Assembly (NCBI GenBank): GCA_965178125.1
Contig: OZ237760.1
Span: 744,001-808,000 of the forward strand
DNA length: 64,000 nt
Reading direction: 5' to 3'
Origin: Bilabrum cf. latius
Taxonomy: Eukaryota
In this document: piece by piece, positions 20,901 to 55,662 of the stretch
How positions within the stretch are numbered: the first letter of the stretch is position 1
Layout of the letters: each line of letters starts with the position of its first letter
The notes under the pieces: model-generated
What the model was told of the DNA's origin: nothing
Databases searched by the model: none
Seen by the model: only the letters and a program-made list of their open reading frames with translations
Program-made: the position numbers and the translations under genes

Positions 20901-23900
20901 GCCCCTGGCGAGACCTGCAGCCAGGCGGAGCCGCCACGCTGCCACGAGCGGAGTCACCGCTCGGTCCCGTGCCGCCTTGCTGCTGCTGCTGCTGCTGCCC
21001 GCACCTTCACCGTCTTCCATCGGCACAGAGGCACCCCCAGAGCGGCCCAGCTCGGCTGCGGCCCTGGCCTTCGGTCCGCTGCTCGCTGCTTCCCGCAGCC
21101 CGGCGAGAGCCGAGGCCGCGCTGCGGCCCCACTCGCCGCACGCTGCCGCCAGCGGACCGCTCGTCCCCGCGATCCCATCGGCCCTGTCGTCCGCTGTCTC
21201 GTCTCCGCTGCGCACGCCGGGCCAGGTAGTATCACCGCACAGCACGGCGGGGCCCAGCACCCGCGCCGCCTCCCTGGGACAGGTCCTTGCGGCTCGCATG
21301 ACCGCCTGTGCCACCTCGTCCACGCTCACCAGAGGGCTCTGCACAGCGAGCCACTCGGCCAGCCGCCGCAGCAGGCCCTTGCGGAGCTCCGGGCCAGCCT
21401 GCTCGAACACGGGACCCACCAGAGCCCCGACGCCTAGGCCGCCCAGCACGCCCGCCAGACCTCCCGCAGTGGCCGGGGCCACCGTCGCCTCCTTGCCCAT
21501 GGGGAACCCCTTGCTGGCGCTCCACACGGCGGTCCCGGACTTGACCCCGGTCGGCTCCCCCAGCCCCATCTTCGCCTCAAAGTCGTCGGCCGAGGGCCTG
21601 GCCGTGCCCGAAGAGCCGCCCTCGTCCAGCCCCAGCGGACCCCCGCCCACCCCCGCGCTCTCCGCCTGCTCCAGTGCCCTCAGGCTCGCGTCCAGCACGC
21701 CCTCGGCCCATCTGCACAGGCGCGGGGTGGACGCCCAGCACTCGCGGAGCAGCTCCGTGGCCCGCTCGGAGGACACCTCCTCGCACCAGAGGGCCGCGGT
21801 GCCCGGCCGCGGGCTTGTTCCCTGGGACAGCAGCTCCTTCAGGAAGGCCTCCCTGCCTGCAGCGGCCTGCCCCCCCGTGCGGAGGACAGCCCGGAGGGGG
21901 TGCCTCTCTGGGAGCATCCCCGCAGCGGCTGCCCCGCTGGCCAGGACCTTGTCGGGGCCCTCCCCTTGTTCCCTGAGCCCGGGGTGCGTCAGGCCCTCCG
22001 ACTCCGCCACGGGGTCCGCCGCTCCTCCCGCGCCGACTGAGCCGCCGCCCGCGCCCGATGCGGCCGCCCCCGATGCCGCGCTGCCTCCCGCCATCGCGTC
22101 CACCGTGGTTGCGTCCACCAGGGGGAGCAGCCGCAGGGCGGCCGCGGCCAGCGAGGCAGCAGCCCGTGTCTTGGCCGGGTCCGAGGGGTCCAGACCGGGG
22201 AGAGAGGCCTCTAGGATGCCCGCCACAAAGGGGGCCGCGTGGGGCACAGGGAACAAGAGGGGGGCGAGGCACATGGCCAGAGCGTACATGGCGGGGGCGG
22301 CCTCGCTGGACCGATCCACGGCCTCGGGGGACAGCGCGTCGGCGCATTGGGGCAGCAGCACCTCTGCCACGGCCCCGGGGCACAGCAGGGCCATGTCTCT
22401 CATGGCCCTGCACGCGTCCATCCGAGCGTGCGCCGAGGGGGAGAACAGGAGCAGGCGGCACGGGCGCAGCATCATGTGCACTTGTGCCCGGACCGCGGAC
22501 GGCGTCACGCCCACCCCCGGCCCCGCGCCTGCGCTGCCACCGGGCAGCATCCCTTGCAGACCTTCATCTGTGAGCAGCCCCGCCGCATGCCTGCCCACCT
22601 GCTTGCCCACCGCTTCTGCCAGGCTGTTGGCCATGTAGGACAGTGCCTTGGCGACGTGCGGATTGCCACCATTGAGGGGGAAACAGGCCGCGTCCACCCG
22701 CCTGTACATGCGTGCGAAGGAGCCCAACACCGAGCGGCCCCCCGCCTCCTCAGGCGCAGGCACCAGGGCCAGCGCGCCCTCGGCGTCACCCGGCAGCGCA
22801 ATCCCAACATCACCCTCCAGCGAGCCGTCAGCATCTTCCGACTGCATCTTCGCCTGGCCACCCACCCCCCCCGCAGCATCAGCATCCGCTCCCACGCCCA
22901 GGTGCCGGATGGAGCTCAAGAGGCACACGAGCTGGTAGGCCGCCTGGTGGTGCCCCACACCGATGGCTCGGCACAGCACTGCTGCCGTGGAGCCGTCCAG
23001 GGCGTTGTCCGTCTCCCTCGCTGCGCGGTTCAGGTGACCCCCCCCGTTGGCCACCCCCAGCCTGATCTGCAGCCTGAGAGACGCGAAGGGGACGAGCTGG
23101 CCCCACTCCGCGGGGAGCATACCCGTCCAGCCGGCCGGCACCCCGTCTGCCGGGACCGATCCGCTCGTCACACCATCGCCGAGCAGGTTCAGCCTGGCGG
23201 CGTGGTCCGCGGCAGCGATCGAGTCCAGCAGACCGCCGACGAGCGCGTCGGCCTCCGAGCACGTGACGAGTGTGGCGCTGCGGGCCCACGCGCGGGCCAG
23301 GCGGCGCACGTTGGCGGCACCCACGTCAGCTGACGTGGCACGGTCAGGGTGGGACGCGAACAGCATGACGAGTGCGGTGGTTCCGGCACGGCCCGCCCGT
23401 GTGACGAGCGGGAGCATGGTGTTCCACAGCGGCCCCGCTTGAGATGCGGGCACGAATGAGCTCATGGCCATGAGCAGCTTGATGGCGGACTTGCCGTGCG
23501 AGGCCAGGACTGCGTACGGCTCCGCTACGTGGAAGCGCCTCAGGTGCGTGTCGCACAGCTCGAGGAGGGCAGGCCTCCAGTCCATGGCGAGCAGGGCCGG
23601 GCCCGCGGCCTGTGCGTCGGAGCGACCCAGGTGCTTGGCCAGCGCTTCCATGATCCGCGCGTGCTGCGCAATGGAGGCCCGTGCTTTGCGGGAGGAGAAG
23701 GCGGCGGCGTGGAGAGCGAGCGCGACCTGCTGCCAGAGCTCGAGGTCCACGGCGTACTGCAGCTTGTGCATCTCTTCCTGCGCAAATGTGAATAATTTAC
23801 AAGCGCAGGTAGTCGCGAGTTTGGAGTGTGTTCGGTGCGAAAACGACGAGGCGATCGTCTCTCGCGGAAGATTGGCAGCAGAACAATGGCTGAGAGTTTC

Positions 23901-26175: not shown

Positions 26176-28218
26176 ATGAGACGAGGCTTGATGTTGACAG
26201 TGGTAATAACTTACCTGCTAGCCAGCTTTACTAGGTCACAAGTTACGATTGACCCCACAGTGGCTCGATTTGTAGAGCAGGCACGCACTTCAGTTAGCGC
26301 GATCGCGACAGAAGCGAAGCGGCTGTACGACAATCGGTGCGACGCGCAGTGCTCTGAATGCGTTATTAATGCCTGCAGGTCTGGCTTTCGCGGGCAGCCC
26401 GAGGACGAGCAGTGCTTGCTGCAATTCTCGACGTCTTCAGTATGCCCGGCTCCCGGCCAGACGCTGCTGCCCGACGTGTCCGCTGTCCGGATTGCCGAAG
26501 GGGTAGAGCTAGACCCATCCGTAGATGCGGGCGCTTTGGAAGACGCTTGCACGTACAGCGACCTCTCGTCGACCTTCCAGAGCAACTTCAACGCCCTGCC
26601 TGACGTCCGCTGGCAGTACTTTGCGACCGTGCAGGGCGTGCATAGGACCTATCCAGCCAAGCTCTGGAGCATCAGCGGCGAGGACACGTGCAACCCGTAT
26701 GACCCGCGCCGCCGCCCGTGGTTCGTGTCCGCCGCGTCGGGCCCGAAGAACGTGATTTTGCTGCTCGACGACAGCAGCAGCATGGGCATCGTTGACGAGG
26801 GCGAGTCCAAGCAGAGGATGCAGCTCGCAGCAGAGGCGGCAGCAGACGTTCTCTCCACACTCACGTCGAGCGATTTCTTCGCTGTGCTCCGTTTCTCGGA
26901 CCGGATCACCTCCTGGAGCACCGAGGGGACCACTGGCATGGTGCGGGCCACGGATGCTCACCGCGCCGCCGCGCTGGCCTGGGTGAGGGACACGAGGCCG
27001 CAGGGGTCCAGGACCTCATTTGCGATGGGGATTCAAGAGGCCGTGAGGCAGCTGGACGAGGCCATCGCCAACGATTTCGAGAATACTCGTCACACCAACT
27101 GCCTGAGCACCGTCGTGATGCTCACAGACGGCCAGGCCCAGGACGGTGACGGGGCCGTGGAGGCCGCCGCGCAATTGCGGAACCGGGACCCGCAGACCAT
27201 CCTATTCACCTACTCGTTCGGGGAGTCCGCCGCGGCGCAGGACCGCGACAACATCGGGAAGCAGATGGCCTGCGCAGGGGGCGGCCTCTGGCTGGGCGTG
27301 CCCGGCAGCAGCTCGCTGGCCAGCGCCATGTCGCAGTACTACCAGTTCGTGGCCGGGCTGCAGGCGGATCGCTCGGGTGCTATTGTGTGGTCCGACTTGA
27401 TTATCGACGCCAGTGGGCTGGGCCTGTCGGTGGTTGCAACCGCACCCGTGTACTCGGACGACGGCGTGCTGGTGGGGGTGGCGGGGACGGACCTCGCCAT
27501 TGACGACCTGGGTGGAGACAGCGCGAACCTGAATCTGCTGACGTTTCTCAGGGACAGGTCCAGCCAGTGCGCGGCCGTTGTTCCCTCAGAATGCCTGCTC
27601 CAGCGGCTCCGTCAGGCCGCGGCCCGGCGTGTTGGAGGCAGGAACATGCAGGACAGCAGCATCTGCTCCTTCTCCACCAATGCATCCCACCCCCTCTACG
27701 CGCCGGCTCTGGACAACTGCACCGCGGCAGGGAACAGCACAGGCACTGGCAGCGCCGCTGGGTGCCCCGACGGCCGCCCAAGGGCCCGCCTGTGCCCCGG
27801 CGAGGACATCAACCTCGAGCTGTTCAAGCAGGGGGCCTGCTGCGGCGAGCCCAAGGACGAGAATGAGCTGCCGGTGGCCGTGGTGGTGGTGGTGGTGGTG
27901 GTGTGCGCGCTGGTGGTGGCAGTGGCGGTTTGGGGCTGGTGCGCGGGCTGGTGCGAGGGCGAGGGCGACGGCAGCGCGCATCCAAGAGGGCGGGGCAACG
28001 GGAAGGTGTCACCTAGAACCGCGGCTGCGATGCAGCACGTGTCGGGGGGACGCATGGTCGCTGATGACCCGAGGCACGGCGGTTCCAACCAGCCAGGGGG
28101 AGGTGGCCAGCCCGGGTACCAGGGGCAGAGCCAGAGCCAGAGCCAGCAGGGACCTGGGTTTGGGGTATCTAGCAGTAGCGGGGCCCAGTGGAGTGACGGA
28201 CACTAGGGGTATGCCTAA
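26176..28218 (+). CDS. VWA + Cache-domain type I membrane protein (calcium channel alpha2-delta / CACHD1-like)
   Basis: Signal peptide, WQYFAT, YDPRRRPWFVSAASGPKNVILLLDDSSSM, MLTDG, LVGVAGTD and a poly-Val TM segment. TAG at 28204, then GYA and TAA 28216-28218. Confidence 0.85.
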
Positions 28219-29895: not shown

Positions 29896-30026
29896 GGCTA
29901 GATTGCAGAGGTTTGGATCGCTTGCACCCGGACATAATGTTGCGAGTAGTTAAAACCATTTTCTCGGTTTCCGGATCGGATCGAACACCAGCCAGCCCAC
30001 GAAAGCATATTTGTGGGATTCTTGCC

Positions 30027-31229
30027 ATGGCAGACAGCATCCTGACCAAGTGAGGCTAAATCATAAATATTGATACTAATAAAAACCTGTTGGACCGCTG
30101 CTTTACCCGTGGTTTCCAGAGGAACGATCGAACGAGCCGGAGGTTGCCGTAGCTCTGGCATTGCTGCCAGTCCTAGCGGCTGTGTGCCAGGTGGAATTAT
30201 AAAGCACAAAAGTAGCCCAACCCAATCGATACTATCATATGTTTTCAATCTAATCGTCGTTTTGCAGGGGCCGCGATGAGGACCTGAAGGCTCTGATTGC
30301 CGCCAAGGCCCACCTGGGCACGCGCAACACTAACTACCAGATGCGCCCTTACGTCTGGCGTCGCTCCACCGACGGTGAGTAGTTGCATCAGCATGTTGTA
30401 CCCGTCCGATTGGCGGGATATCGTGGTGGAGTGCGTACTTGACGCGTTCTAGTGTCGCTGCAGCCACCGGCAACTCTTCCCGTCTTTCCTCGATCTGTAC
30501 GCCGCAGGCACCCACATCATCAACGTGGGCCGCACTTGGGAGAAGATCCAGCTGGCTGCCCGCATCATCGTGGCCGTGGAGAACCCCGCCGACGTGGTCG
30601 CCATCGGTGCCCGCCCCGTGGCCCAGCGCGCCGTGCTCAAGTTCGCCAAGTACACTGGCGCTCTGTCCATGGCCGGCCGGTACACCCCCGGCACGTTCAC
30701 TAACCAGATCACCAAGAAGTACCGCGAGCCCCGCGTGCTGGTGGTCACCGACCCCTACTAGGATGCCCAGCCCATCCGTGAGGCCGCCTACTCGAACGTG
30801 GTGGTGATCGGCTTCTGCAACAGCGACTCCCCCGTGCGCAACGTGGACGTGGCCATCCCCGCCAACAACAAGAACAGGCTTTCCATCGGCCTCGTGTTCT
30901 GGCTGCTGGCCCGCGAGGTGAACCGCCTGCGCGGCACCGTCTCCCGCGAGGACAAGTGGGACGTGCCCGTTGACCTCTTCTTCTACCGCGACCCCGAGGA
31001 GATCAAGGCCATCGAGGAGGCCGAGAAGAAGGCCGCCGAGGAGGCCGCCGCCGGTGAGGTGGATTGGGATGACGCCGAGGCTGGGGAGGGCTTCGACGCC
31101 GAGGGCGCCGATGGCGAGGCCGCGGCCGGCGGAGCCGACGCTGCTCCCGCCGCTGACGAGTGGGACGCTGGCGCCGGGGCCGGCTGGGAGGAGGGCGGCG
31201 ACGCCGTTGCCGCTGAGTTCACTTCCTGA
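30027..31229 (+). CDS. RPSA: 40S ribosomal protein SA (uS2)
   Basis: Exons 30027-30049, 30268-30374 and 30508-31229. [67 protein letters not shown] at 30759; TGA stop. Confidence 0.97.
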
Positions 31230-31457: not shown

Positions 31458-34400
31458 TCAGTCGTCTGCCGCGGACATCCATTCCACTGCATCCCTAGCA
31501 CGCTGCAATGTATCGATGTCCCTAATTTCACTAGTCCAGGTGCTCGCGATACTGGTCAGCTTTCCCATGGGGCGACGAAGCGCTTGCCGAACGCTTTGCT
31601 GCACCCAAGCGGCCATTCCGTCGCCGGACCCGACCGTCCCCACTAGCGCCCAGGCGTCCTGCACCAGCCGGCCGCACGGTCCAGTCCGCCCAGCGCCGAG
31701 CACTTGCGCGCGAGCGAGCAATTTGGCGGCGGCGCCCCGCTGCAGCACGGCGAGCCGCTCCCAACCGGCGCCCGCGGAGGGTCCAAGCGCCGACTGCCGC
31801 GCCTGGCGGATTGCATCCGCGCCACCCCGCGCGCTCGCCGCCCCACCTCCAGCCCCACCCCCATCATTTGCTCCTCCGGCTCGCAGAAAGGCCTCGGCCA
31901 GCCCCGTGTCCAGCAGCGCCTGCACCCATCGCCGACCACCAACCGCCTCCTGGATGCTGGCACGGGGCTCAGCACGAGGCCGGGCATGAGGCTCGCCAGC
32001 AGTGGCACGGGGCTCAGCACGAGGCCGGGCATGAGGCTCGCCAGCAGTGGCACGGGGCTCAGCACGAGGCCGGGCATGAGGCTCGCCAGCAGTGGCACGG
32101 GGCTCAGCACGAGGCCGGGCATGAGGCTCGCCAGCAGTGGCACGGGGCTCAGCACGAGGCCGGGCATGAGGCTCGCCAGCAGTGGCACGGGGCTCAGCAC
32201 GAGGCCGGGCATGAGGCTCGCCAGCAGTGGCACGGGGCTCAGCACGAGGCCGGGCATGAGGCTCGCCAGCAGTGGCACGGGGCACTGGGGGGTGCGCCTC
32301 TGTGGGTGCAGGAGCTCCAGCCCCCGAGGATGGTTGTTCGCTGGAGCTCAGCGAACCTTCGCTGGGTCCTGTCCCCGGGCTGTGCGCCGCCTTGTCCGCT
32401 CCCGCCTCGAGAAGGCGATCGGACGCTTCCTGGGCCCGCACTGCAATGCGGTGCAGCTCCGCCGCTGGCCCGGGGCACACAGCGAGCAGCAGCCCCCACG
32501 CGACTTCCTCTTTCTCCTCCTCGCTACCATCTTCATCTTCGTTACCGTCTCCTCGACCCATCGAAAGCGCGGTCGTCGCAGCAGCAACCCCACGGCGGCG
32601 AGGCGACAGGAACAGGGCGCCGCCGTCCGCACTCGTCACACTAGATGCCCCCACCAACGCCCCCTGCCCGCTGCCACTCGCTCCTGCCGCCAGCTGCAGA
32701 AGCGGAACCAGCGCATGCGCGGCGCCGGCGGCATCCGCAGCCAGCGCCCCGAGCCCTGCGCTCACCTGTCGAGCCAACGCACCGCTTTGTGCCCCTGCCT
32801 CTGCCTCACCCGCAGAGCCTCTATCCCCTGCAGCATCAGCCACCGCGGCGGGACCCATGGAAAGAGCCTCGGCGAGCGCCCGGGCGACGGCCCCTGCCAC
32901 GGCCGCGGCTGCCTGTGCCTGCGCACCGCCCTCTGTGGGCAGCGCCGCCAGCCCGAGTCGGGCCACGTCCTCCGATGTGGCCCGGAGCTCCTGCAGCCAC
33001 GCTGCCGGTTCCGCTACCCCACGCAGCAAATGCGCGGCGCCCGCCTCGCCACCGCCGGCATCGCTTCCACTGCCGGTCGATTGCTTCGCAGCTCTCGCAA
33101 CGGCTGCCCGGATGCGGACGAACGCGCGGGGGATCTGGCGGCGGAGTCGGGTCACAGCGCGGTGAAGACGAGGCAGCAGCAACAGGGCCGCGGCGCCGCG
33201 CATTGCGGAACTTGCGGCTTGGATCGGGGCTGCCACGTGAAAGCCCCCCGCCGGACCCACCCGCGCACCCGGGAAGCCACCCTGGGGTGCACTCGCCACA
33301 CCTCCCTACGGTCCCGCATCGACGGATGTCTCAGGCAGGAGGGTCCACGCAGCCACGCCTCCCCCGCTGCTGCCTCCCGCAAACTCCAGCCACCTCTTGG
33401 CAATCGTCACACTGTCCCCGCTGATCGCAACCCCTCCGCTCCCAGCTGCACTGGCCCCGCTGCCGCCAGTGCCAGTGCCAGTGCCAGTGCCAGCGGTAGT
33501 AGCTATTGTTCCCTGGTGGGAGCCCACCCGCTCCAGCGCCGCCAGGGATGCTCGCCCCAGGGATGCATCGCACTGCAGCACGCGGGCCGCCAGCTGCAGC
33601 TGCAGCTTCGCTCGAGCCTCTTGCCCCTGCCCCTGCCCCTGCCCCGTCCCTGCCACGCCTGCGCCAGGCCCAGCATCAAGCGGCAGCAGTGGGAGCCCGC
33701 GCACCAGCAGCCGTGCCGTCATTGCGGAACATGCTGCCGCGCACCCTTCCGCCGCGAGGGACGCGCCCAGCCACGGAGAGAACGCGCAGGAAGCGCGCAT
33801 CGTGCGGGCGGCCGGGCCCAGGTCACTCGTCACACTTGAGCAGCGCGCGAGCATCGGGATCCACGGATTGCCGCCAGCGCCACGGTCGCCAGCGGCTGAG
33901 CTGGCTCCAATATCGCCCCCAGTGTCCCCATCCCCGCCGCTCTCCGAGTCTGGGCTGCCCACCTGCATCAGCGCGCGGGGCAGCTCGGTGGCTTCGAAAA
34001 TCGATTCCGGGTCCATGTCCAGCCCCGCGCCGGCTCCACCCCTCGGTCCCCCCGGAGGAGCGCCGCTCGCGGCCTGCAGCCGAGTCACCGGCCCCTGACC
34101 CTTCCACTCCTCCCCTGCCTCCGCGCGTCCTCCCTCCTCCCCCTCCTCCCCCTTCTCCTACTACTGCTCCCTCCCCCTCCTGCCAGCTGCAGCCCCGGCC
34201 GCACCCATGGCAGCACCCTCTCGCACCAACGAGAGCACCCTTGACAGTCCCTCTAGCGGCGGCCCAGCCTCAGCGGGCCACGCCGAGACAGACTGCAGCA
34301 GCTCAGCACCCAGTGCCCTGCCCAGGGCGGCCACCTGGGCGTAGGCGGGGGCACTGGCGCCCGACGATGATGACGATGACGTGGACGACGGGGCGAACGG

Positions 34401-37136
34401 GGAGGAGGAGGACGAGGCCGCGGGAGTGCTGGCGGACCCTACCCCCACACCGGACAGTCCCACCGCCTGTGCCCCCACAGCCCCGCCAGCTCGCTCGGCC
34501 CCGGCCACTGCTCTCACCGCCCATGCGTGGGTCAATTTCAGCGCCGCACGTGCTCCCGCCCTGGTTGCAACCGCCGCCATGGGCATCCTAAGCATCGCAA
34601 CTGCCACAACCGCCTGCCGATCCAGATCCGGATCCAGGTCCAGACCCAGATCCGTTCCATGAATGGATGCTCCCGGGGGCTCCCATCCACCGGCTCCTCG
34701 CAGCATGGACCCTGCCGCAGCCGCCCACCCCGCGCCGCTGCCCTCCCTGCACGCCCCGAGGGCCTCCTCCACCAGCCTGCTCTCCAGCTCCGCGGCGCCT
34801 GCGGAACTGGGCGCGCAGGCATCGGCCAGGGACCGCAGCCTGGCCGCGGCCCTGTTCCCCGCGGAGAGTGTAGGTCCCTCCAGCGCCCCCGCAAGGAGGG
34901 CCCTCTCCACGGAGGTGCCCCCAACAGGGTGCGAGTCGGCCCAGGCACCCAGGAGTGCCGCGAGGTGTGACGAGTGGGATGGGGTGGACGGGGCCACGGC
35001 GCCTGAGCCGGTTGCCATTGAGCCCACCCGGCCGTTGCTGCACCGCATTGCCAAGCTCGGTGGCAGGGCGAGCCGTTTGGCCGCACCAACCCCTGTACCC
35101 CCACCCCCCCCACCACCACCACCGCCACCACCTGTCCTCGCTGATGCCGAGCCGGATAGACGGTCCAGCGCCGCGAGCAGCGCCCGCCGCACCCTCGGCA
35201 AAGATCCCTGCAGCACCTTGGCAGCCACAGTGGTGGTGGTCAAACCGGCGCTGCTTCCCTCGGTGGACCGAGTCAAGGCCCTGACCCACGAGGCGTCCGC
35301 GCTAGGCACACCAGCCAACGAGGAGGACGAGGACGAGGGGCTGCTACTCTGAGCCGTCGCGTCTCGGGCCACCTGCACCACGCGGGTGTCCGTCGGCTCT
35401 AGGACAGCGCCTGTCCCTGCCACGTCACTCGTCGCACGACTATCACCACCCGACGCGAGCCCCTCCGCCAGCACTCGCCGCAGCCCCGAGCATAGACACC
35501 GCCAGAAGAAGCCAAAGGGAGACTCAACGGAGACTGTCCCAGCCCCAGCCCTGACATGCGACCCCTAAACAGCCCCTGCCTATCCGTCGCCGACTTCACC
35601 TTCTTCCGATCCTAGTTCCAAATTTGTACCCTCCCGCGAAGTCAGGCAGGCCCTCCCACGCAGGCACAGCTGCAGCAGGGACATCTCTCCGCCTGCGTTG
35701 CTCAAACCCCCGAAGCTCCCACGCACCGCCATATCGCCACCCGCCCCCCTCAACCCAAGTTTAGAGCCACCCGCGCTCACACCCGCCCCGGCCGACGCCC
35801 TCGCCAGCACCCGCTGGAGGTGCCACACCCTGACCCCCGAGCGGTACAGCTTCTGGCACACGCCCTCCAGCTCCTGCCACACCCAGTCCTGGGGCTGGGC
35901 CTGGGGCTGGGCCTGGGGCTGGGCGGAGCCCCCGGCCACTGCACTCGTCACACCTCCCTCGTCCTTCCGCAGCAGCGCCTGCATCCCCGCGACCACCTGC
36001 GCCGCGGCCCTGCCTGCCTCGGCCAGCACGCACGCGGACAGCGCGTCGGCGGAGTCGCTGTCCGAGAGAGCTTCCCCGCTAGCGCCACCAGGGGGGGGAT
36101 TGCCCCCGGGTTGACCCCACGTCGGGGTCAGTCCCAGGGCAGCGATTCCCTGGCAGGCGCTGACGATCTCGCCGGGGGACAGCCGGTTGACCGCCGTTCC
36201 CAGCCGCGCGCGGAGACTGCCGTGCAGTGCAGTGCAGCAGCGCCGGACCCAGGGCCAGGCCTCTGCCACCGGGCGGAGCAGAGAGGCTCGCGGGGGTGAC
36301 CCGTGTGACGAGTGAGCCGCGGGGCAGGCGGCGACCGCCGCCCTCCGTGCGAGCGGGGCAAGTGCCTCTGCCCTCCTGCACTCCAGGGCGACCACGGCGA
36401 GCTCGTGCTGACGAGTGAACGACTGTGGGGCGAGGCCGGTGGCTGCCCCGTTGCTGAGCCCGGCCTCTCCTGCTGCCTCCGTCCCAGTTATCCCGCTGCT
36501 GCTGCCAGCAGCCGTGCTGCCGGTGCTCGCACTAGGCGAGGTGGCAGCGGCAGCGGCAGCCCCCTGGCTCCCGGCCTCGCCCACGCTGGACACCAGCTGC
36601 GTGATGGCGCGTGCCGCAGCTGCACCAGAGCGGGCAAGCACCGCGGCCCGATGCGCAACCCGCAGCCTGTTCGCGGCTTGGCGCAGCTGCCTCGCGGGAG
36701 CGAGCACGTGCGAGCGAAGCGGGGCGCAGGACTCGTGCAGACGCAGCGCAGAGTTGCGAGCCGAGGCGACCTACCGTCTTAGCTCGCCCGCCCTGGAAGC
36801 AGACTGGGCAAGTTCATTCCCTTGCGACGCCAAGGCGCCGCGAAGGCATTCCTGAAGCTGGGCATCCGCCTCGTCGAGCCGCTCCAGAGCGGATCTGGCA
36901 GCGACCGCCGCCTCATCCGAGCTTGGCTCCTTGCTGCCGTCTCCACCTAGCCTACATTGCAAGCTGTATTGAGATAGGTCGGCAACGGGGACATCCGACC
37001 GAGCGAGCCCCGTGGTTTCGGGCGCGGTCTGAAACGACTTCATCAAGTGCAACACTTTTGCCACTACATGCCAGTCCAACGATTTATCGGCCTTCCTGTC
37101 GGCTTCATTACTATGCGATGAGCCATATTGGTCCAT
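31458..37136 (-). CDS. COG5: Conserved oligomeric Golgi complex subunit 5-like (about 1890 aa, many low-complexity insertions)
   Basis: N-terminal coiled coil (LERLDEADAQLQECLR...LAPARQL...RLRVAHRAAVLAR), VWQELE...VWHLQRVLAR, FFWRCL. Five track ORFs join in one frame via TAG at 36771, 35580, 35565, 34161, 34158 and 33306; TGA 31458. Start uncertain. Confidence 0.7.
31958..32283. repeat. Coding minisatellite, 45-bp unit, about 7 copies (PRATAGEPHARPRAE)
   Basis: TGGCACGGGGCTCAGCACGAGGCCGGGCATGAGGCTCGCCAGCAG at a 45-bp period from 31958. Confidence 0.95.
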
Positions 37137-37326: not shown

Positions 37327-38411
37327 ATGGCAGGGTGAGTCTGAACTGGTGTGACCTGGCGTGGATCTGGCTGGTGTGCAATATACTGCGCCACGGCAGC
37401 TCTGCGATGCTTGCACATGGCTTGAGATTGCTCTCAGGTTGGCGATGCAGGCTCCGTTCAGCGGCAGGCCACGTCGCCCGTAATTTTGCGTGTTGTGTAT
37501 TTTGACTGAATTCATCGCGTCTCTACCGAGGTTGTCTGCTTCGCAACTGCTGCTAACGCTGCATTCCCAACATGCTCAGTCAAGCGAGCTGGAGCGGATC
37601 CATTGGTTCTATCCGTTCGAACGCGCCACATTTTCGCAGATATGATAGAGCAATCACAGTGTTCTCCCCAGACGGGCATTTGCAGCAGGTAGAGTACGCC
37701 ATGGAAGCAGTGAAGCGCGGGGCAGCGATCGTGGGAGTGCGTGGGAAAGGCACGGTGGTGCTTGCCGTGGAAAGGAAGAGCACTGCAAAGTTGCAGGACC
37801 CTCGCACAGTACACAAGATTTGCCTTTTGGATAGCCACCTAGCTCTCGCGTTCGCCGGGCTGCACGCGGACGCCCGCGTGCTGGTGAATCGCGCGAGGAT
37901 CGAGGCCCAGTCGCACCGCCTGGCGGTGGAAGACCGAGCCACCGTGGAATACATGTCCAAATACATCTCGGGCATCTAGCAGAAATACACGCAGACGGGC
38001 GGGCGCAGGCCCTTCGGGATTACGACCCTCCTGGCAGGCACGGACGTCGACGGTCGCCCGCGCCTGTTCCAGACCGACCCCGCGGGTGTCTCTAGCGAAT
38101 GGAAGGCCCAGGCGGCGGGCAGGAACGGGAAGACCCTCCGCGAGTTCCTTGAGGCGAATTACGAGGAGGATGCGTCGGAGGAGGACTGCTGCGTGCTGGC
38201 CTGCCGCACGCTGCTCGAGGTGGTGGATTCCGGCTCCGGATCGATCGAGCTGCTGGTGGTGAGGGAGGCAGCCGAGGGCGCGACCGCGGGCAAGGTGAGC
38301 ATGGTGCCAGAGGATAAGGTGAAGGAGTACGTGGAGGCGGCAGAGAAGGCGACGGAGGAGGCGGCGGGCAGCAGTGGGGCCGCGAGGCCGGCGGCAGGGG
38401 GGAGCTCCTGA
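37327..38411 (+). CDS. PSMA7: 20S proteasome subunit alpha type-7 (alpha4)
   Basis: Exon 37327-37334, intron 37335-37639. [61 protein letters not shown] at 37977; TGA stop. Confidence 0.97.
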
Positions 38412-38695: not shown

Positions 38696-41600
38696 TCAAT
38701 CTACCCCTACTCCCACCCCTGCCATCTCCACCTGCTCCACCTCGGTGCTCCCGCTCCTCTCCCCGAGCAGGCGACTCCCCTTCGCTCTGCCTTGGCCGCC
38801 CCTCCGCTGCAGTGGGCCATCAGCAGCATCCCCATCCCCACCACCGACGCTGCCAGCGCCAGCAGCGCCCCTGCCCTTGCCGCCACCATTGATCCTCTTC
38901 CTGCCCTTGCCGCTGCTCCTTGCCCCTAGCCTCGATCCACCCGCCGGCTGCCCTTGTTCCCTCGCCTTAGACCCCGACTTGGACCCCGACCTGGACCCGG
39001 GGCTGGGCCGGATCAGATCCAGGAGACGAGTGCGGCTGCCGGCAGACACTGGGCCGGTGCCGCTCTGACCACCGGCAGTCGGTGTGGACGGGGTGGCGGG
39101 CTGTGTCGGAGCCGCGGGGGCCTGTGCGCTCGCCGTGCCAGGCGTGCCTGCCGTGGTGGGCTGTGGCCTGCCGCCCTGCAAATGCCCTCGCTCTTGCCCC
39201 GGTACTTGCCCTGGTCCTCCTCCCCTGCTTCGCCCACCTTTGCCTCCACCTCCACCTCCACCTCCGCCTCCCCGTAGCACGATGGGCGTGGAGGGGGAGG
39301 GCGATGTGGCCCCAGGGGAGGCCATGCCGTTCAGTCGGACACCCCCGGGGGATTTCCCCTGACCCCGCAGCGGGGATCCCCTTCTGGGGGCAGAGCCAGC
39401 CCCCCTGGCCCTGATCAAAGCCCGGTGAGTCGGTGGAGTGCCTGATCTTTGAGCCTATCGGGCATCCTCGCCCTCCGCCTCCTCCTCCTCTTCCTCCTAG
39501 TGGTACTCGCTTCCTTCCCCTTGCGGGGCGAGCTGCAGCTGCCGGCGAGCGCCAGACTCTGCCCTCCCCCTGCCCAGCGGTCTCGTGCTGCCGGCACTCG
39601 TCACACTATCACCAGCATGCCCCTGCCCTTGCCTCGTCCTCCCACCAGCCAGGCGACCGGCAGCCGACAGCCCACCAGCCGCGGCTGTCCTAGCCCTGTG
39701 CAGGCTGCGGCCCTGTGCATTCATCCTGTCGGTGCCCACAGTGGTCTGTGCCTTACCCCCAGTCCCTGTTCCTGTTCCTGTTCCCTGGCCCGACCGCAGC
39801 CTCGTCGCTGCGCGATGTGCCCCCGGAGAAGCGATGCTGCCAGCGGGTGAAAGAAACCGCCTGGCTGCCCCCGGAGTCACCCTGGGGCCGGCGCTGCGGG
39901 GCCCCGCGGTGCTTGCGGTTCGTGCCACGGAAGACCCCGGGGCGCGGGAACTGCCTGGCCTCTTGCTGCCGCTCCTGCTCCTGCTCCTGGCGCCTCTGGC
40001 GCTGCCCGGGCTTTCCTCCACTGCCAGCCGCGCCGGCGTGCGCTGGCCCTTCTCGAAGATCCTGAACCAGCCAGGGGTTACCGGGGAGAACCTCGCCTCC
40101 TGGCTGCCGAAGGGAACAACGGGCACGTCTGTGGGCGAGGAGGCCCGAGAACCCGGCCCGCCGCCATTGCCATTGCCATCGCCCCTGCCGCCTCTCCTGA
40201 CCCTCCTTCGCCTGCCGCTGCCAGCCGAGGACATGCCCATCGCCGTCTGTTTCATAGCCATCGCAACCTCATCCTCTTCCTCGTCTTCGTCCTCCTCTTC
40301 CTCATCGGCTGCTCGGCCACGCCTTCCCCCCCCCTCCATACAGTTGTCAGACCCGTCCCGCGCCCGATCCCTCCCCACGGTGCCTAGCCCGAGCCCGAGG
40401 GAGGGGGAAGTGGCAGGCCGGATCATGCGGTGCAGCCCCTTTCCCTGCCCCTGCCCCTGCCCCTATGCCTGGCTCACGGGTCTCTTGCTGCGGCGAGGCG
40501 AAGAGGGCGGCAGTCCCGCCTCCTGCCCCTGCTCCTGCTCGTCGCCTGACCCACCAGACTCCCCCGGCACCTCCTGCTCCTGGCCGACTGCCGAGGCCCC
40601 GGCCCGCGGGGGACCGTCCGTGTACGTCGCGACGTCCACGTCAACCCCCTGGCCGGCCGACTCGGAATTGGAATCGTCCACGTCCAGAGCATCCGCCGCC
40701 ACCACTGCGACATCCGTGCCATCGAGCACCCCCTCTTCTCTCCCTTGCTCCTCGTCCGCTGTCTCGATCTGTCTCGCCCGGTTGGCACCCTCATTGGCAG
40801 CAGTACTGACTGCTTCGTCCTCACCGGCAAGCTCTTGAACGCTTCCATAAGATCCACCCTCTGCCCCCACTTCCTTGTCAACTTCCTATTCCTATTCGTC
40901 CCCGCTGCTGCCGAGGGACAGCCCAGCCGAGGCGCTAGAGCCCGACATCGCATCGCCACCCCTCTGCTCCTGCTAGTCACCGTCCTCGTCGTTCTAGTCC
41001 TCTCGGCCTTCGCTGCTCACGCCCGGCTTCCCAGTGCGCCTGTCATCTTCATCTTCATTGCCGTACTCCACCACAGACCCCGCCGCCTCCACCTGACCCA
41101 AGCGCTGGCGTGCACTGTCACTCTCACCCCCACCGTATACCTCCACCACACGCCCCTCGCCGATGCCCGTATTGTCACTCGCGTCACTGACAGCCTCATT
41201 ACCGCACGGGCTGTTCCCTGGGACGCACCCCGCCACCGACAGCCTCAGCCGGCGCATCCCCTCGGTGCGGGGGCCGAGCCCGGGCGCGTGCTGCTGCAGG
41301 GCACGGTGTGACGAGTGACCACGCTCCGGGTCGTGTTCCTGCATGGCGGCCTCACCCCACTCACTGGACAGCGACCTACCCCGGCTGTGTCCGGGCCGGT
41401 GGCTGCTGCGAGAATGGCTCAGAATACCGCTGCTGCTTCTGCCGGCGCTCCGGTAGGACGGGCGCACGCTGCTGGTCCTGTAGCCCGCATGCCCACCACC
41501 GTCATCGTTCTGGCTCGCATCCGGGCTGACGTCGAACGCGCGGGCCCCAAGCACAGCTGCCGCAGGAGAGGGCGACACCGAGGTCAGAGTCCCTGCCCGG

Positions 41601-42230
41601 GAGGGGTTGCCCCGCGAGTGGCTTGGTGCATCGCTGCCAGTGGCATCGTCCAGGCCAGTGGGATGACCCCGACCGCGGCTGCCGCTGTCCGCCGCCCGCC
41701 CGTCTGCAGAAGGTCCTGATGCGGAATATCCGGACGGAGAAGTGTACGTGCTTGAGACCGTGCTTGGCGGCGACTGCACATCTGTGTCGCGAGCAGCTGC
41801 CCCAGTGGCGCTCGGTCCGAGCCCATGTGCTTGGTGGTGCGACGGATTACTCCCATGGTTTTGCGGAGACCAGTCGCAGTCGCTCTATACATTGTGTGCA
41901 ATATGTTGGCTCTGTGGCTGGACGTCTTTGTTAGGGCTGATAATTTGCCGCGGCCGTCTTTTCGTGCGACATGGCTCATCCACGAACGCTAGAGGCGCGT
42001 GTGAGTCTCGGCCCGCAGCAAGGTCAGGCGGGGCTCGGTTGTCAAACTCAGCTTTCTTATCTGCGTTATTTGAATGGCACACAACCAAGCGGATATAGGT
42101 CAGCAGGATGCTTGACAAGCAGGCAGCTGGCCCAATACCGATCCGCATGGCGCGGAGTCTCTGTGCACCACACTATCCGCCATAACTTACCACCATGACG
42201 GGCTGCTTCGACGGAAATTCCACAACCCAT
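38696..42230 (-). CDS. Large low-complexity, probably disordered protein with an N-terminal MGCGxS acylation motif
   Basis: Exon 42230-42191 MGCGISVEAARHG, intron 42190-42061. One frame through TAG at 41885, 40994, 40973, 40892, 40886, 40463, 39497 and 39455 to TGA 38696. Confidence 0.65.
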
Positions 42231-45385: not shown

Positions 45386-48300
45386 TCAGAGGCCGTCCGG
45401 CATCGCATCTGCTGCCCCACCCCCTGGCTGTTCCCCACCCTGATCCCAGCCATCGCTCCCCCAGGCCACGACCCGCTTCTTCCCTTCTGATCCGACCCCG
45501 CCTTCAGCAGTTGCGCCATGCAGCACAGTGCCGTGCACCTGGGCACGCTATCCTTCTTCTTCCTCCTCTCCTTGTTCACGTTGGGCCAGCCCCGCGGCAC
45601 AGCCCAGCAGCACGCGAGCCGCCTCCTCAAGACCTCCACAGTGCGATGCACCCGCGATCCCCCCCAGCCTCCCGATCCTCTCCATGCACCGCTGCAGACC
45701 CTCTGCAACCGTGAGTCTCAGCTCGGCATTGCTTCTCTTTCTCCGACCCCCGCGCACCACGATGGACGCGTGCTCCCGCAGACACAGCCCCAGCGACACC
45801 GCAGCCGCCCGAATTGGGGCACCATGGTGACCCTCCCCTGCCCCATACGTTGCCGTGGCCTCCTCGATGCGGTGCAGCAGATCGTCCATCCTGCGGGAGA
45901 TGACGAGTGCAGCGCCATCGTCGATACGTCCACTACCAGCACTGTCTCCATCACACCCTCCGACGCCGTTCACAGGCGGCATCGCGTCGCCTACCACAGG
46001 TGGCATCGCGTCGCCTACCTCGGCTGTTGCCTCCGCAAGCGGGCTGTCTGCACCCTCCATGTACGGGAGACCACCGTCGGATTGATCCGATCCCTAGGAC
46101 TCGGAGTCGGAGTCGGATTCCGAGTCGGACAGCTCGATCACCCTGCCGCCCCCAGCAGCACCGGCACCACCTCTACCTCGATCATCTCCGCCGCCGCCGC
46201 TGCTGCTGCTGTCACTGTCAGAGCCGTGCAGTTCCACCGGCATTGCTGCTTCAGTTGCATCTGGTCCTCGTCTAGCTGCACGACCTGGAACCCCCGCGCC
46301 AGCAGCACCCCCTTCCCTTTCCCCCTCCCCCTCCTCCTCACTGGATCCCGGCACCACTCGACCCAACACCCCCCTTGCAGCGCGACGAGCAGCACGATCC
46401 GGCAGCCTCCGCCTCCTGCCCCCACCTGCTCGCCCCTCCGGACCCATCCCAGCCCCTGGATCCGCCGCGCCTGAGCCTCCAGGCGCATAATCACCATCGT
46501 GCAGTGCACCCGTCTCGCTACCTGTTGATTCGCCGTAGTCAGCCTCCTCCTCTTCCTCCTCCTCATGCCCCGCCTCTCCCGCCTCAATGTCCACGAAAAC
46601 AGGTGTCTTGGCCCCCCTCTTCCTTGCTGTGCCCCTTCCGTTACGTCGGCTCCTCGCACCTCCACCTGCCGATCCACGGCCCCAGTGCCTCTCAGGGGTG
46701 GCCGCGACACCCTCCCCGCCTCCACCGCCCCCGCTCTCATTCGTGTCGCTCGCTCGCAGCACGTCGTCGTGCGCAGTCACGTCCACGATACATCCGGACC
46801 ACCTCTGCCCCACCCAAGACAGCCCGGGGCTGGCAGCTGCCGCTCGTGCTCCCATCGAGGCGCTCCCTCGGCTCCCTCGCGCCTCTGCACCCGCGACTAT
46901 ACGCCTGCCCCTTTCCACTGCCCCCTACACCCGACTCACGTGCCTGGCGAGCACCTCGGTGGGGACTTGCACCTCGGGCACGGTGTGCTGGATCCGTGCA
47001 GCCGTCTCGGACCTGTCTGTGGCAGAGAGCTCGAACACTTTTCTCAGGTCCTCACGACTCAGCAGTCGCAAGGGCTGGCCCAGCGCAGCCATGCCGCCAC
47101 CACCACCGCTGCTGCTGATCTTGCGGCCCGACGCAATGCCATGGCTGTCCTCCTCATCCTCGTCCTCCTCTTCCTCGCTGCCGTCTCCGCCCACTCCATC
47201 GCCCCCCACGCCACCGATTGCCTCCCCTGCCCCGCTATCGGCCCCCAGCACTGCCCCCGCCAGCCCTGCCTTGAACACCTGCGCGCCGTACTGCCGCTCC
47301 TCCGCTGTCCCGCACGTCACCAGCCGGTACACCACCACGTCCCTAGTCTGACCGATCCTGAAGCACCGATCGGCCGCCTGCGCGTCCACGGCGGGGTTCC
47401 ACGCCGGGTCCAGCAGCACCACCCTGCTTGCACCCGTGAGCGTCAGCCCGTGCGCCGCCACCCCGGTGGTGAGCAGGCACGCCTCGAGGCTCTCGTCCTG
47501 GTTGAAACGGTCCACGTGCGCCTGACGCTCGCGGCCCGGCACCGACCCGTCGATCCTGCTGTGCTTGCAGCCCGCCGCGTGCAGCACCGCAGAGGCCAGG
47601 TCCAGGAGCCGGATGGAGCGGCTGAAGACAAGCAGTCTGGACTCTGCCCTCCACGCCCCTTGGGCGTCCTGTGAGGTGCCCGCTTGTTCCCTGGGCGCGG
47701 AGGTACCTGCTGCTCCGTTTCGTTTCGCGCCCCGCTTGCTGGCCTTCTGCTTTCGCCTGGCCTTTCGCTAACTCTTGCTCCTGCTTCGTGCCGTGCTCTT
47801 GTCATGCGCGGCCTAAGCTGCCGAGGGTATTCCCAGAGCGGCCTGCCATGCCAGCACAGCCCGACTGGAGGCCGACAGTGCCTCTGGGCCCCTTATTCCC
47901 CTAGCCTGTCCGTCCTCGCTGCTTCCATCTGAGCTCGTCGTCGAGGTCGAGGACGACTAGGTGGAATTCCCGCTGCTCTTGGCACCGGCCTCGGCCTCGC
48001 CAAGTTCGTGCCCCGACGCATGCCCCGAGGCACTCCCGTCGCTCCCACCGTCTCCGCCCAAACCTGACCCAGACCCAGACCACGGCCCGCCCCTGTGTTC
48101 CCTCCTCTTGCTCCTGCCGAGCTCCCTCCTCCGAGCGGTTCTCCTCTCCGCCCTGCACAGCGCAAGGACGTCTAGGAGGGCGCCCATCTTGCTGGAGGCG
48201 CGCACCACCTGGCACACGTCCAGTCGCAATGGGGACAAATCCGCCGCACTGCCATCCGCTCCGGCACGAGCGAACGAAGCGCTCGCATCCCGCAGCACAC

Positions 48301-50842
48301 CAGTTCCAAGCCCAGCCCACCCGCGTAGCCTCGCCGCCTCCTCCTCGTCCGCCACGCCCTTCTGCAGACGATCGGTCTATGCACCAGCCAGCAGCGGGTG
48401 CGCGGGTCCTATAGGCTGCCGCGCATGGTGGCCAACAACGTCGCCCCCGCCAGCACCAAAGCTGCCGAGAGCTTCCATCCCGCCGGCGCCCCCCGCCCCA
48501 TCGCTGGAGCTCTCGCTGGTGCTGGACAGTACCGGCACGCCTGCCCTGGTGGGTTGGCGCGAAGGCACCGGCAAGGCAGCAGCACTGTTCCCTCGACCCG
48601 GAGTGGAAACAGGCGAGCGACTCGAAGGTGTGACGAGTGCGGCAGGCACCCTCGGTAGGATGTTTCGGATGGCCACCCCTGCCCTGCCCCTCGAGTCCAG
48701 CAGCAGGGGATGGTCGCACAGCCGAAGGAGGGCGGAGAGGACCACCAGCGCGTCGTGCTGGCCACCTCTGTTCTTCCTTGCATCACCTTTGCCCTGAACT
48801 CTAGTAGCACCATCCGTCCTGCCGCGCCAGCCCTCCCCGTCCTCTTCTTCGTCCTCTTCCTCCTCCTCGGGCACCAGCGCTGCTCTCGCCTCTGGGCTGC
48901 TGAGGAACGCGCGGTACAGCGCCAGCTGCACGCTGGAGGGACGGCACCAGAGAACAAGCTCCTTCTTGTGCGGCTGCGGAAGAGCCGGGGGAATAACGCT
49001 TCCTGACCTCCCCGCGGAACCGTCTCCAGACACCCCGGAACCACCGCTCGCAGCTGCGCTCGCGCCCTCCTTCTCGCCCTCCAGAGCAGCGGACCCCGGC
49101 CCCGCCACCCTCACGTCGCTCATTCCCCCGGGCCCTTTCTCCCTCCGCAGCATGTGCGGGGCAAGCACCGCCCTCAGCGCCTGGGAAGCCCTCGCCCCCC
49201 TCGCTCTCTGGGTGTCACTGGCCCGCGCGTCCCTCGCCCTCTCGAGGGGCCCCGCCACACGATCCAGGAACCACTTGCGGGGGCCCAGCAGCTCGCCCGG
49301 GCAGGCCAGGTCCACCAGGGCCCAGAGCTCGTCGGTGCGATTCTGCAGAGGGGTGCCCGTGAGGAGGAGCCGCCTGCGGGCGGGGAGTGCCCTGAGCGCC
49401 TTAGCTGTCTTGGTGGAGGGGTTCTTGGCAGCGTGAGCCTCGTCACAGATGACCCAGTCGAATCCCATGCTCGGCGTCAGGGGTGGGGTCCTCCCGACCG
49501 GGGAACGACCTGGTCTTCTTCTTTCTTTCCTCTTCGCGCCCTGAGATTGCGACGTGTCGCTGTCGCCATGTGAGTCGTTTTCCGATTCCGATCCCGAATC
49601 CGACCCGCTCTTGTCGTCGCTGGAGTCACCATCAGACTCGGATCCACTGGACGAATTGGGCGAGGAGGAAGAGGCGCAGGTAGACGATGACGACGAATCA
49701 GACCCAACAGCTGCTAGCGCTGCTGAGGCCCGTCTTCCACGCTTCCCTTCTCCTTTCCTATTCCCGCTTGAACCCCTGTCTCCTCCTGCCCGTGCCCCGC
49801 TACGAACCACAGCAATACCACCGCCGCTGCTGCCCCCACCCCAGCGCTGCTCAAACCCATCGTGACCCGGCACCAGCCCCCTCTTCCACTCCTTGCGCTC
49901 CCCCACTGGCGGCCCCGTGAGGAACCGATCCGCCATTTCACGGAGCTCCTCGATCCTCGTGCTCACAGTCCCGTAGGTGGTCACCAGCACGCCGCCCTTG
50001 CTTGCCACCTGCCGGAGCGCCTTGCGCGCCGCCCCCGCTGCCCCGTGGTAGATGGCCACCCGCACCCCGGGCGCCCACTGCCTGATCTCCTTCGCCCAAT
50101 TGTCCACAAGGGACAGCGGGGCCACCACCACGCAGGCCCGGGCCCGCCTAGACCGGAACAAGCCCCCGAGGAAGGCGGCCACCTGCACGGTCTTGCCCAG
50201 GCCCATCTCGTCGGCCAGGATGCCGCCAGCCCCGCCGGGCAGTGGCACGTGGAAGGGCAGCACGGGGGCGGGGGCGGGGGCGGTTATGCCTGCTCCTGAG
50301 GCATCCCCGCCGCTGCCTTCCTCGCTACCACGGTCTGGGTCGCCATCACTGCCGGCTTCATCGCGCGCTGTTCGAGCTCCAAGGGATCTGTGCTCGCCTC
50401 TGGCTCGGAGCAAGTGCCTGGCCTCTGCGAGCATCGCACGGAGCCATCGATTGCAGGGACAGCCTGTGGGCTGCGCCAGGTGCAAGCGCCAGAGCCAAGC
50501 GATGCCGTCACGCTGGAACGGGTGCAGTTTTCCAAATATACCGGCTGAAACTTCCAATCCTCCGGGCAGCGCGAAGCTGTCCGCCGGGGCGCCCGAGTCT
50601 GCAGATGACTCAGAGCAATCGGAGTCTTCGTATACGATCTTCTCCCATCGGAATGAACCGCGTGCCATCGCAACCATCGACATCAACCTCTGCGCAGCCG
50701 GCGAGGATCTCGTGGATAGCTGCAGCTCTAGCCGCTTGAGTGCATCATCAAACTTATTGCCAGTGCCTTGCGATGATGCGCTCTTTGATGCAAGCAAGGA
50801 AGCTATTTTCCCGGCGCCAACTGAGGGCAGTCGGACCTGCAT
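45386..50842 (-). CDS. SNF2-family helicase, ERCC6/ERCC6L(PICH)-like
   Basis: LHPFQRDGIAWLW, GGILADEMGLGKTVQ, DEAH, LLTGTPLQN, SSKMGAL, LLVFSRSIRLLD, RIDGSV, DPAWNPAVDAQAADRCFRIGQTRDVVVYRL. TAG at 48377, 47957, 47813, 47768, 46925, 46094 and 45548; TGA 45386. Start uncertain. Confidence 0.88.
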
Positions 50843-55200: not shown

Positions 55201-55662
55201 GGAACACCGGCCCTGACCCTAACGGAGCAGAGGCGAGCCGCGGCTGTACGGGCCATTCGGGAGGATCCCGCCGTGGACGTGTTCAGCTTCGGGGTGACCG
55301 CTTTCGTGGTGCTGACCGGGCTGGCTCCATGGGGCGGCGAGCGGTCCGTCGCTTCGCTGTACCAGGCCATCGTGATGGACCGGTAGGACATGCCCGGGAC
55401 CGTGCCGGAGTGGTGCGGGGTCCGTGCGGGCCACGCGGAGCTGGTGAGGACCTGCATGCGGTACGACCCGAGGGAGAGACCGAGCGCGCTGCGGGTGTGC
55501 GAGATGCTTGATCAACTGATCGAGGGGCTCTCAGCGGACCGAAGCAAGAGCGCTGGGCAGGGCGTGAGTGCTCGATTTCCAAGTGCATTGCATGGGAGTG
55601 CTGACGACGACGATGAAGCCGGGCCGGGGATTGACAACGAGTATTCCCCCATTGTTGATTAA
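52267..55662 (+). CDS. Ankyrin-repeat protein kinase (TKL-like), 1131 aa
   Basis: Ankyrin motifs GDTPLHIAAHRG and GRTPCHNAAANGH; kinase motifs IGAGGFGMVY, VVK, HRDLKPDN, SDFG, YRAPE, DVFSFG, CMRYDPRERPS. One frame through TAG at 52360, 53200, 54010, 54073, 54079 and 55384; ends TAA. Confidence 0.88.
53302..53430. repeat. (GCTGGT)n coding microsatellite giving an Ala-Gly tract
   Basis: About 21 hexamer copies inside the kinase gene linker. Confidence 0.95.
53775..53939. repeat. 51-bp coding tandem repeat, 3 copies plus a partial (YGDMSEEIRQRPRLPGT)
   Basis: Units start at 53775, 53826, 53877 and 53928 (partial). Confidence 0.92.

Follow-up and report, generated by a model that had tools for sequence, protein, structure and literature searches.

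What do TAG triplets mean in a nuclear genome whose conserved genes contain them in frame? The question is raised by a stretch of 64,000 nucleotides from Bilabrum cf. latius (assembly GCA_965178125.1, contig OZ237760.1, positions 744,001 to 808,000 of the forward strand); this whole stretch is called the window below, and all coordinates are based on it. The focal locus is a gene for a proteasome alpha subunit of the alpha-7 / yeast Pre6 type, located on the + strand at 37641..38411, from the conserved YDRAITVF start to a TGA stop, inside an open reading frame (ORF) at 37557-38411. It matches the Pfam domains Proteasome (3.1e-51) and Proteasome_A_N (9.3e-14) as well as PSMA7 in the PDB (2e-84), and its sequence reads YISGI[TAG]QKYTQTGG around an in-frame TAG at 37977..37979. 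We observed that TAG is a sense codon in the intact conserved genes of the window, and its best-supported meaning, on few sites, is glutamine (Gln, Q).

The window has a GC content of 56-71% and carries nuclear eukaryotic genes with few introns. The codon content of 11 genes (12,666 codons) was analyzed: 39 TAG were found in frame, well beyond what chance would give, and neither TAA nor TGA. The GC content at third codon positions (GC3) is 0.733 in the 40 codons that precede a TAG and 0.727 in those that follow, compared to an average of 0.524 in the 40 codons past terminal stops. ORFs of at least 300 amino acids (aa) sum to 20,640 aa with all three stops in place and to 38,410 aa when TAG is read through; the longest then has 3039 aa instead of 1345. 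With TAA read through, the total is 23,502 aa and the longest ORF stays at 1345; read-through of TGA gives a total of 58,495 aa with many spurious frames and a longest ORF of only 1360 aa. Thirteen of the 30 long ORFs obtained by TAG read-through match Pfam across their TAGs; they include a COG5_C match below the Pfam cutoff and a ZGRF1-like N-terminus. The TAGs located within ungapped conserved motifs are thus not hidden small introns. TGA is the main terminator, being absent in frame and present at 10 of the 12 gene ends examined. The two others are TAA and none is TAG, in a sample small enough for an occasional use of TAG to be possible. For CSE1, PSME4 and TECR the gene ends coincide with homologous C-termini, and the stop found there is TGA. 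TAG represents about 7.5% of the glutamine-type codons (39 TAG vs 427 CAG and 52 CAA).

The amino-acid meaning of TAG was examined in alignment columns of three genes. Besides the proteasome gene, these are CSE1/exportin-2 and ribosomal protein SA/uS2 (RPSA). CSE1 lies on the + strand at 7385..10672 (ORF 7223-10672), ends with TGA and has one apparent intron near its 5' end, at about 7510-7660. It matches Pfam Cse1 (4e-84), CAS_CSE1 (6.8e-71) and yeast Cse1 in the PDB (2.6e-88), the latter alignment showing a gap between query residues 41 and 97. Three in-frame TAGs are considered in it: 9497..9499 (PSNP[TAG]YYHYLFE), 9650..9652 (LFPHF[TAG]TLI) and 10607..10609, in the C-terminal tail. The last exon of RPSA (30510..31229, + strand, ending with TGA) is preceded by an exon near 30300-30400 and by an intronic TAG at 30450; it matches uS2 in the PDB (2.4e-76) and, in a second scan, Pfam Ribosomal_S2 (2.2e-18, 30297-31229, + strand). 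In the exon reading it carries a TAG at 30759..30761, in the motif VVTDPY[TAG]DAQP. Homologues were the best 120 of 6907 matches for the proteasome subunit (aligned with MAFFT), the best 150 of 2185 matches of a representative protein search for CSE1, and the best 120 of 5874 matches for RPSA. At 37977 the proteasome column holds Q in 85 rows, K in 35 and nothing else. At CSE1 9650 it holds Q 76, E 16, T 12 and L 6 among 144 non-gap rows. Gln is the only residue found in all five columns, and it is dominant in just these two. With a small pseudocount and a flat background, the log-odds summed over the five columns are +6.6 bits for Q, +0.2 for T, -3.8 for K, -4.1 for L, -10.4 for S, -12.0 for E and -19.1 for Y; without the gappy CSE1 10607 column they become +7.3 for Q, +1.0 for T and -1.7 for K. 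Pfam bit scores were also summed over six domains for ten trial meanings of TAG, and Q again comes first, by a small margin: 796.8 against 795.4 for K, followed by T (794.5), E (794.4), H (793.7), L (793.1), S (792.9), R (792.5), Y (789.3) and W (787.1). No separation of these meanings is obtained from the kinase, GH3 C-terminal and Fn3 domains.

A preliminary description of this DNA had proposed that TAG sits at conserved Gln positions in housekeeping proteins and stands for Gln rather than Leu, Glu or Tyr. The five in-frame TAGs that it listed (37977, 9497 and 9650 on the + strand, 62568 and 12421 on the - strand) are all there. The choice of residue agrees with the summed log-odds and with an orthologue comparison in which the partner codon is CAG in six of eight CSE1 columns. 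Two motifs that it gave for the families are recovered as well: in the alpha-7 motif, the column after G-x is followed by an invariant Q; in the F-P-x-F-Q motif of CSE1, P occurs in 119 and F in 123 of the 150 rows, and Q in the 76 already counted. The wording "conserved Gln positions" holds for 37977 and 9650 and is overstated for the set, only two of the five named sites being in Gln-conserved columns. Likewise, its expectation that Gln should dominate the conserved TAG columns is borne out at the proteasome site and at CSE1 9650; the columns of CSE1 9497, CSE1 10607 and RPSA 30759 are not Gln-dominated.

The orthologue comparison relies on a CSE1 gene carried by L001, a 3606-base metagenome contig. 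It was found by a scan of metagenome contigs, after two short proteins had been seen to be 76-77% identical to parts of the window CSE1. Over 905 aligned codons the two genes are 77.6% identical in protein and 73.7% identical in DNA. Nine columns have a TAG in either gene: one TAG/TAG (9497), six TAG/CAG, one TAG/CAC and one TAG/GAA. The TAG/CAG exchanges run in both directions, the window having the TAG at 9650 and 10607, and L001 having it at 8708, 8900, 9698 and 9887. As a baseline, of 41 ordinary CAG codons of the window, 26 have Q or TAG opposite them in L001; TAG thus behaves like a Gln codon. The L001 gene contains seven in-frame TAGs, so that the relative has the same code; it ends with TGA, as does the window CSE1. 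Outside CSE1 no homology between L001 and the window was detectable, and no more orthologue columns could be drawn from it; CSE1 relatives were not found in viral contigs, nor RPSA relatives in genome contigs. Public gene calls are cut at these TAGs. Protein P0216 ends with ...EPSNP just before the first window TAG, P0262, P0271 and P0272 end with ...VAAQP before a TAG, and P0321, which is 99% identical to the window RPSA, begins a few codons past the RPSA TAG. These fragments are explained by standard-code annotation, which has cut proteins of the organism and of its environmental relative (L001:2-2719). Two of them, P0216 and P0262, which are fragments of the L001 relative, are among the CSE1 rows counted above.

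What of the two other stops? If TAA were used in proportion to TAG as CAA is to CAG, about 4.7 in-frame TAA would be expected (39 x 52/427); none was observed (Poisson P(0) about 0.009). Two genes end with TAA, both on the + strand. The first is a VWA-domain gene at 26176..28218 (Pfam VWA 3.1e-11) with one in-frame TAG at 28204 and a terminal TAA at 28216-28218; GC3 drops from 0.72 over its final 40 codons to 0.45 past the TAA. The second is an ankyrin and protein kinase gene at 52267..55662 (Pfam Pkinase 2.6e-21), with six TAGs (52360, 53200, 54010, 54073, 54079, 55384) and a terminal TAA at 55660-55662. Here GC3 is 0.70 over the gene, 0.53 directly before the TAA and 0.40 past it. As far as the window shows, TAA looks like a stop. 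Because no in-frame TAA was found where about 4.7 were expected, and because GC3 falls past the two terminal TAAs, we take UAG to encode Gln and both UAA and UGA to be stops, a reading that we hold to be quite probable. NCBI table 15 is the same codon table.

Several observations weigh against Gln, and part of them would favor another residue, i.e. Thr, Lys, Leu, Glu, Ser or Tyr. The informative sites are few, five deep columns and eight orthologue columns. At 37977, Lys is found not only in the 35 homologues but also in all five mammalian PDB chains shown. The CSE1 9497 column is variable (K 18, R 16, T 16, H 13, S 13, N 12, A 9, L 7, Q 7 and others in 144 non-gap rows), that of 10607 is gappy and poorly aligned (L 48, V 13, M 11 and Q 3 in 105 non-gap rows, plus 45 gaps), and the RPSA 30759 column is mostly Thr (T 85, V 14, I 8, Q 7, P 2, M 2 and L 1 of 119). 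Yeast Cse1 has R at the 9497 site and L at the 9650 site. In the Pfam scoring, Q exceeds K by 1.4 bits and all the candidates lie within about 10 bits; taken alone, the proteasome domain puts Q 0.5-0.7 bits below K, T and L, and with the GH3 N-terminal domain E leads Q by 1.5 bits. In L001, two of the eight one-sided columns pair a TAG of the relative with CAC (His, 10064) and GAA (Glu, 10613). TAG and CAG are moreover one transition apart, so that part of the exchange signal could reflect mutational proximity; at this divergence, residue conservation is the more likely explanation of the pattern. UAG = Glu has a precedent in some ciliates. However, no single alternative fits more than one column. 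At the proteasome site T, L, E, S and Y are all absent from the 120 rows, and Ser appears in 0/120, 13/144, 3/144, 3/105 and 0/119 rows at 37977, 9497, 9650, 10607 and 30759, respectively. Each of these residues also scores below Gln in the summed log-odds, and no codon for Thr, Lys, Leu, Ser or Tyr faces a TAG in the eight L001 columns, Glu doing so once. A meaning other than Gln therefore appears very unlikely to us. The RPSA site has a peculiarity of its own: just before its TAG, at 30756-30758, the window has Tyr in place of the Arg of 116 of 120 homologues (motif DPR-x-D), a substitution that makes this highly conserved motif unusual in the lineage.

A second family of explanations keeps Gln and changes the rest. 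UAG and UAA could both encode Gln, with UGA as sole stop (the ciliate table 6 type), provided that in-frame TAA is too rare to be seen in GC-rich DNA. TAA is rare throughout the window (146 TAA vs 394 TAG and 601 TGA on the + strand), just two gene ends use it, neither with a C-terminus anchored by homology, and this is the commonest nuclear variant code according to PMC5304391 and PMC11687900. The use of TAA as a stop is itself deduced from those two gene ends and a rough expectation, with low power, in ORFs that were delimited with TAA as a stop; this too counts against our reading. On the other hand, the absence of TAA from 12,666 codons stands against the expected number, read-through of the kinase gene would add at least 40 codons at the low GC3 found past its stop, with a similar fall in the VWA gene, and the only in-frame TAA between coding ORFs (11926-11928) lies in an intron-like stretch that starts with GTGAG. 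We consider such a code improbable. Still less probable is a dual, context-dependent UAG of the Condylostoma type, read as Gln inside genes and as a terminator near some 3' ends. Only 12 gene ends are available, and in the VWA gene the TAG at 28204 precedes the TAA at 28216 by four codons, so that either could be the real end; yet none of the 12 ends needs a TAG, and after the C-termini fixed by homology (CSE1, PSME4, TECR) the next stop is TGA. Finally, the TAGs might not be translated as such, being pseudogene lesions, assembly errors, or targets of U-to-C RNA editing that restores CAG. Editing would likewise yield Gln and is compatible with the exchanges between TAG and CAG. Against these, 39 TAGs accumulated in conserved genes without a single TGA, TAA or frameshift, TAG is absent from gene ends, and the codon at 9497 is TAG in the independent environmental relative too; systematic U-to-C editing is also not known from protist nuclear genes. 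This last explanation has the slightest chance of all.

For UAG = Gln with UAA and UGA as stops, the following mechanism may be proposed. In cytoplasmic translation of the nuclear genes of this GC-rich, intron-poor eukaryote, UAG would be read as Gln by a putative transfer RNA (tRNA), tRNA-Gln with anticodon CUA. The release factor eRF1 would have lost recognition of UAG and kept that of UAA and UGA, a mechanism proposed in PMC5304391 for other UAG-only codes. It speaks against our reading that ARAGORN and Rfam detected no tRNA gene in the 64-kb window, where no Rfam family of any kind was found. eRF1 is not among the genes encoded in the window.

The host of this code was placed from its proteins. 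Among the best 120 proteasome alpha matches, the best named ones come from oomycetes, Cafeteria and chytrids, at 58-69% identity. For RPSA, the best named sequences of the 120 retained belong to oomycetes, diatoms, Ectocarpus and Fibrocapsa; two transcriptome entries labelled as ciliate are also among them. Of the ten best CSE1 homologues only two carry organism names, a sponge and Chlorokybus, which gives no taxonomic signal. A maximum-likelihood tree of the proteasome subunit was built from 28 sequences over 254 columns (the query and 27 named sequences picked from the 120 matches, the unnamed ones being left out). It places the query as sister to Cafeteria (99/97) and joins the pair to oomycetes (97/93); chytrids, animals and plants fall elsewhere. 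Since the query and Cafeteria are both long branches and a single gene was used, this placement is not established; the host is probably a stramenopile near bicosoecids. An aphelid origin was also considered, as Amoeboaphelidium is reported to use UAR = Gln, and was rejected as the best guess: the proteasome tree puts the query away from chytrids, and the best named RPSA matches, except for the two ciliate-labelled ones, are stramenopile.

How does this code compare with those already described? PMC5304391 presents the first nuclear codes in which the meanings of UAG and UAA are split: UAA remains a stop in both, and UAG stands for Leu in a rhizarian and for Gln in Iotanema spirale. The paper gives tRNA(CUA) genes as the predicted mechanism. 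To these codes PMC11687900 adds UAG = Ser in Scotinosphaera, and UAG-only = Gln in Protocruzia tuzeti and two phyllopharyngean ciliate lineages; it also reports UAR = Gln in ulvophytes, Hexamita, Streblomastix and Amoeboaphelidium, the last being confirmed in PMC6299283. The window resembles Iotanema spirale (Fornicata), Protocruzia tuzeti and the two phyllopharyngean lineages in having UAG in frame in intact genes and facing Gln columns (two of the five deep ones being Gln-dominated), with UAA (at low power) and UGA kept as stops. The kind of evidence, in-frame UAG at conserved columns, is also that of the transcriptome-based work of PMC5304391. It differs from Iotanema and Protocruzia in its host, which groups with Cafeteria and oomycetes and hence would be neither a fornicate nor a ciliate, in its GC-rich composition, and in that neither the tRNA nor eRF1 was seen in the window. 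The main stop differs too, UGA here vs UAA in I. spirale. With the UAR = Gln codes of many ciliates, Ulvophyceae, Hexamita, Streblomastix and Amoeboaphelidium protococcarum it shares the change from stop to Gln, the exchange with CAG and presumably a suppressor-like tRNA-Gln. Unlike them, it has no UAA in frame at Gln positions and has two genes that end with TAA; nor does its tree group it with fungi or chytrids, where an aphelid would be expected. Like the rhizarian exLh (Leu), Scotinosphaera (Ser) and some phyllopharyngean ciliates (Leu), it decouples UAG from UAA, but with another residue. Neither Leu nor Ser lies opposite a TAG in L001, their summed log-odds are both negative, and Leu, which is absent from the proteasome column and present in 6 of 144 rows at CSE1 9650, comes first only in the gappy 10607 column.

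The codon table is thus itself of a known, rare kind, that of Iotanema and Protocruzia, seen here in another lineage. In literature searches that covered titles and abstract openings outside subscription journals, no title reported a stramenopile case of such a code. We tentatively propose, as possible and rather doubtful, that the UAG-only = Gln code arose independently here, in GC-rich stramenopiles near bicosoecids; if so, stramenopiles may here have their first reported non-canonical nuclear code. As the environmental relative, at about 74% nucleotide identity, has the same code, the change would then be an old one, fixed across a clade and not peculiar to one strain. [quoted passage not shown] A further case of independent origin, from another supergroup and a GC-rich genome, would add information on how UAG comes to be captured with UAA remaining a stop, and on whether GC pressure, under which TAA is rare and TAG relatively common, favors the UAG-only route. 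On the practical side, gene callers using the standard code cut proteins at every TAG, and the genome consequently needs an annotation table with TAG = Gln.

The remaining genes of the window with in-frame TAGs are described here, most of them on the - strand. A PSME4/Blm10-like proteasome activator at 14964..23699 (- strand) has three in-frame TAGs (19914, 18414, 16872) and ends, at the homologous C-terminus, with TGA, its Pfam PSME4_C match (1.2e-20) reaching the last residue. It is part of the longest ORF (14964-24083, 3039 codons), in which Pfam covers only residues 527-662 and 2954-3039. A SNF2-family helicase at 45386..50800 (- strand; Pfam SNF2-rel_dom 2.5e-47, Helicase_C 1.4e-17) contains seven TAGs (48377, 47957, 47813, 47768, 46925, 46094, 45548) and ends with TGA. 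Two genes of the GH3 family follow, both on the - strand. The first, beta-xylosidase-like, at 55697..57799 (Pfam Glyco_hydro_3_C 1.6e-51), has TAGs at 57167, opposite which the five PDB alignments have N, S or A, and at 56774, within an insertion, so that both are uninformative; the other, at 58517..61207 (Glyco_hydro_3_C 1.1e-33), has TAGs at 59015 and 58886. The TECR-like enoyl reductase is also on the - strand. Its main exon (61456..62394; Pfam Steroid_dh 1.9e-21 in the second scan, which gave 61459-62394) ends with RRKAIIPFIL and TGA. Its first exon (62502..62663), with a ubiquitin-like N-terminus, carries in-frame TAGs at 62631-62633 and 62568-62570 (TTVR[TAG]LKEEI); the best PDB match of this exon, the RAD23 ubiquitin-like domain, is insignificant (E = 0.14), and its homology is not established. 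Two long ORFs complete the set on the - strand. That with the weak COG5_C match, at 31458..37100, has six TAGs (36771, 35580, 35565, 34161, 34158, 33306) and an extent taken from the ORF alone (31458-37292). The other, at 38696..41800, is of low complexity, showed no homology in our searches, has seven in-frame TAGs and was included in the codon statistics. A further ORF at 28711-29949 (- strand) shows an SH3-like N-terminal stretch and a coiled-coil-like C-terminus and contains five TAGs, two of them in an apparent intron; no Pfam family matched it at E <= 0.001.

Low-complexity inserts rich in Ala, Gly, Ser and Glu inflate the proteins at 14964-24083, 31458-37292, 38696-42244 and 45386-50956 (all on the - strand), and carry many of the in-frame TAGs. 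Tandem repeats are present as well. Within the ORF at 31458-37292 (- strand), a perfect 45-base unit is repeated 7.2 times (31958-32283, 100% matches) and gives a 15-residue peptide repeated seven times. The ankyrin and kinase gene contains two coding repeats, at 53300-53435 (6-base unit, 22.7 copies) and 53775-53937 (51-base unit, 3.2 copies). Directly past the VWA gene, a perfect 52-base unit is present in three copies at 28279-28435.

Ankyrin repeats form the other notable family of the window. Three ankyrin ORFs are found at 10885-14130 (- strand). One of them, ankyrin B (11926..12684, - strand, Pfam Ank 1.9e-05), has TAGs at 12421-12423 (EQAL[TAG]SYLALG), 12571 and 12049. The preliminary description had set the first of these sites against EALQSALASG in another ankyrin gene as a paralogous comparison. 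That peptide is present on the - strand near 2689-2782, but the comparison lacks statistical support: BLASTP of ankyrin B against the 2623-2907 segment gives E = 30 and aligns another stretch. Between ankyrin B and ankyrin A, a probable in-frame intron at about 11929-12000 (- strand), whose length is a multiple of three and whose start is GTGAG-like, would hold both a TAG (11971) and the TAA at 11926-11928. This apparent intron keeps the two ORFs in one frame, and its TAA could, from the DNA alone, pass for one inside the coding sequence. Two ankyrin genes that lie next to each other on the - strand have a common 3' end of 256 bases (10872-11127 and 12672-12927) with 95.7% identity and near-identical C-terminal peptides, which suggests that a tandem duplication or gene conversion took place recently. 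Direct repeats of about 660-780 bases, with 84-90% identity and ankyrin-repeat exon fragments, occupy positions 92-2035 of the window, with more copies at 3135-3411. An inverted repeat of 352 bases at 95% identity links positions 3467-3818 to 14209-14560.

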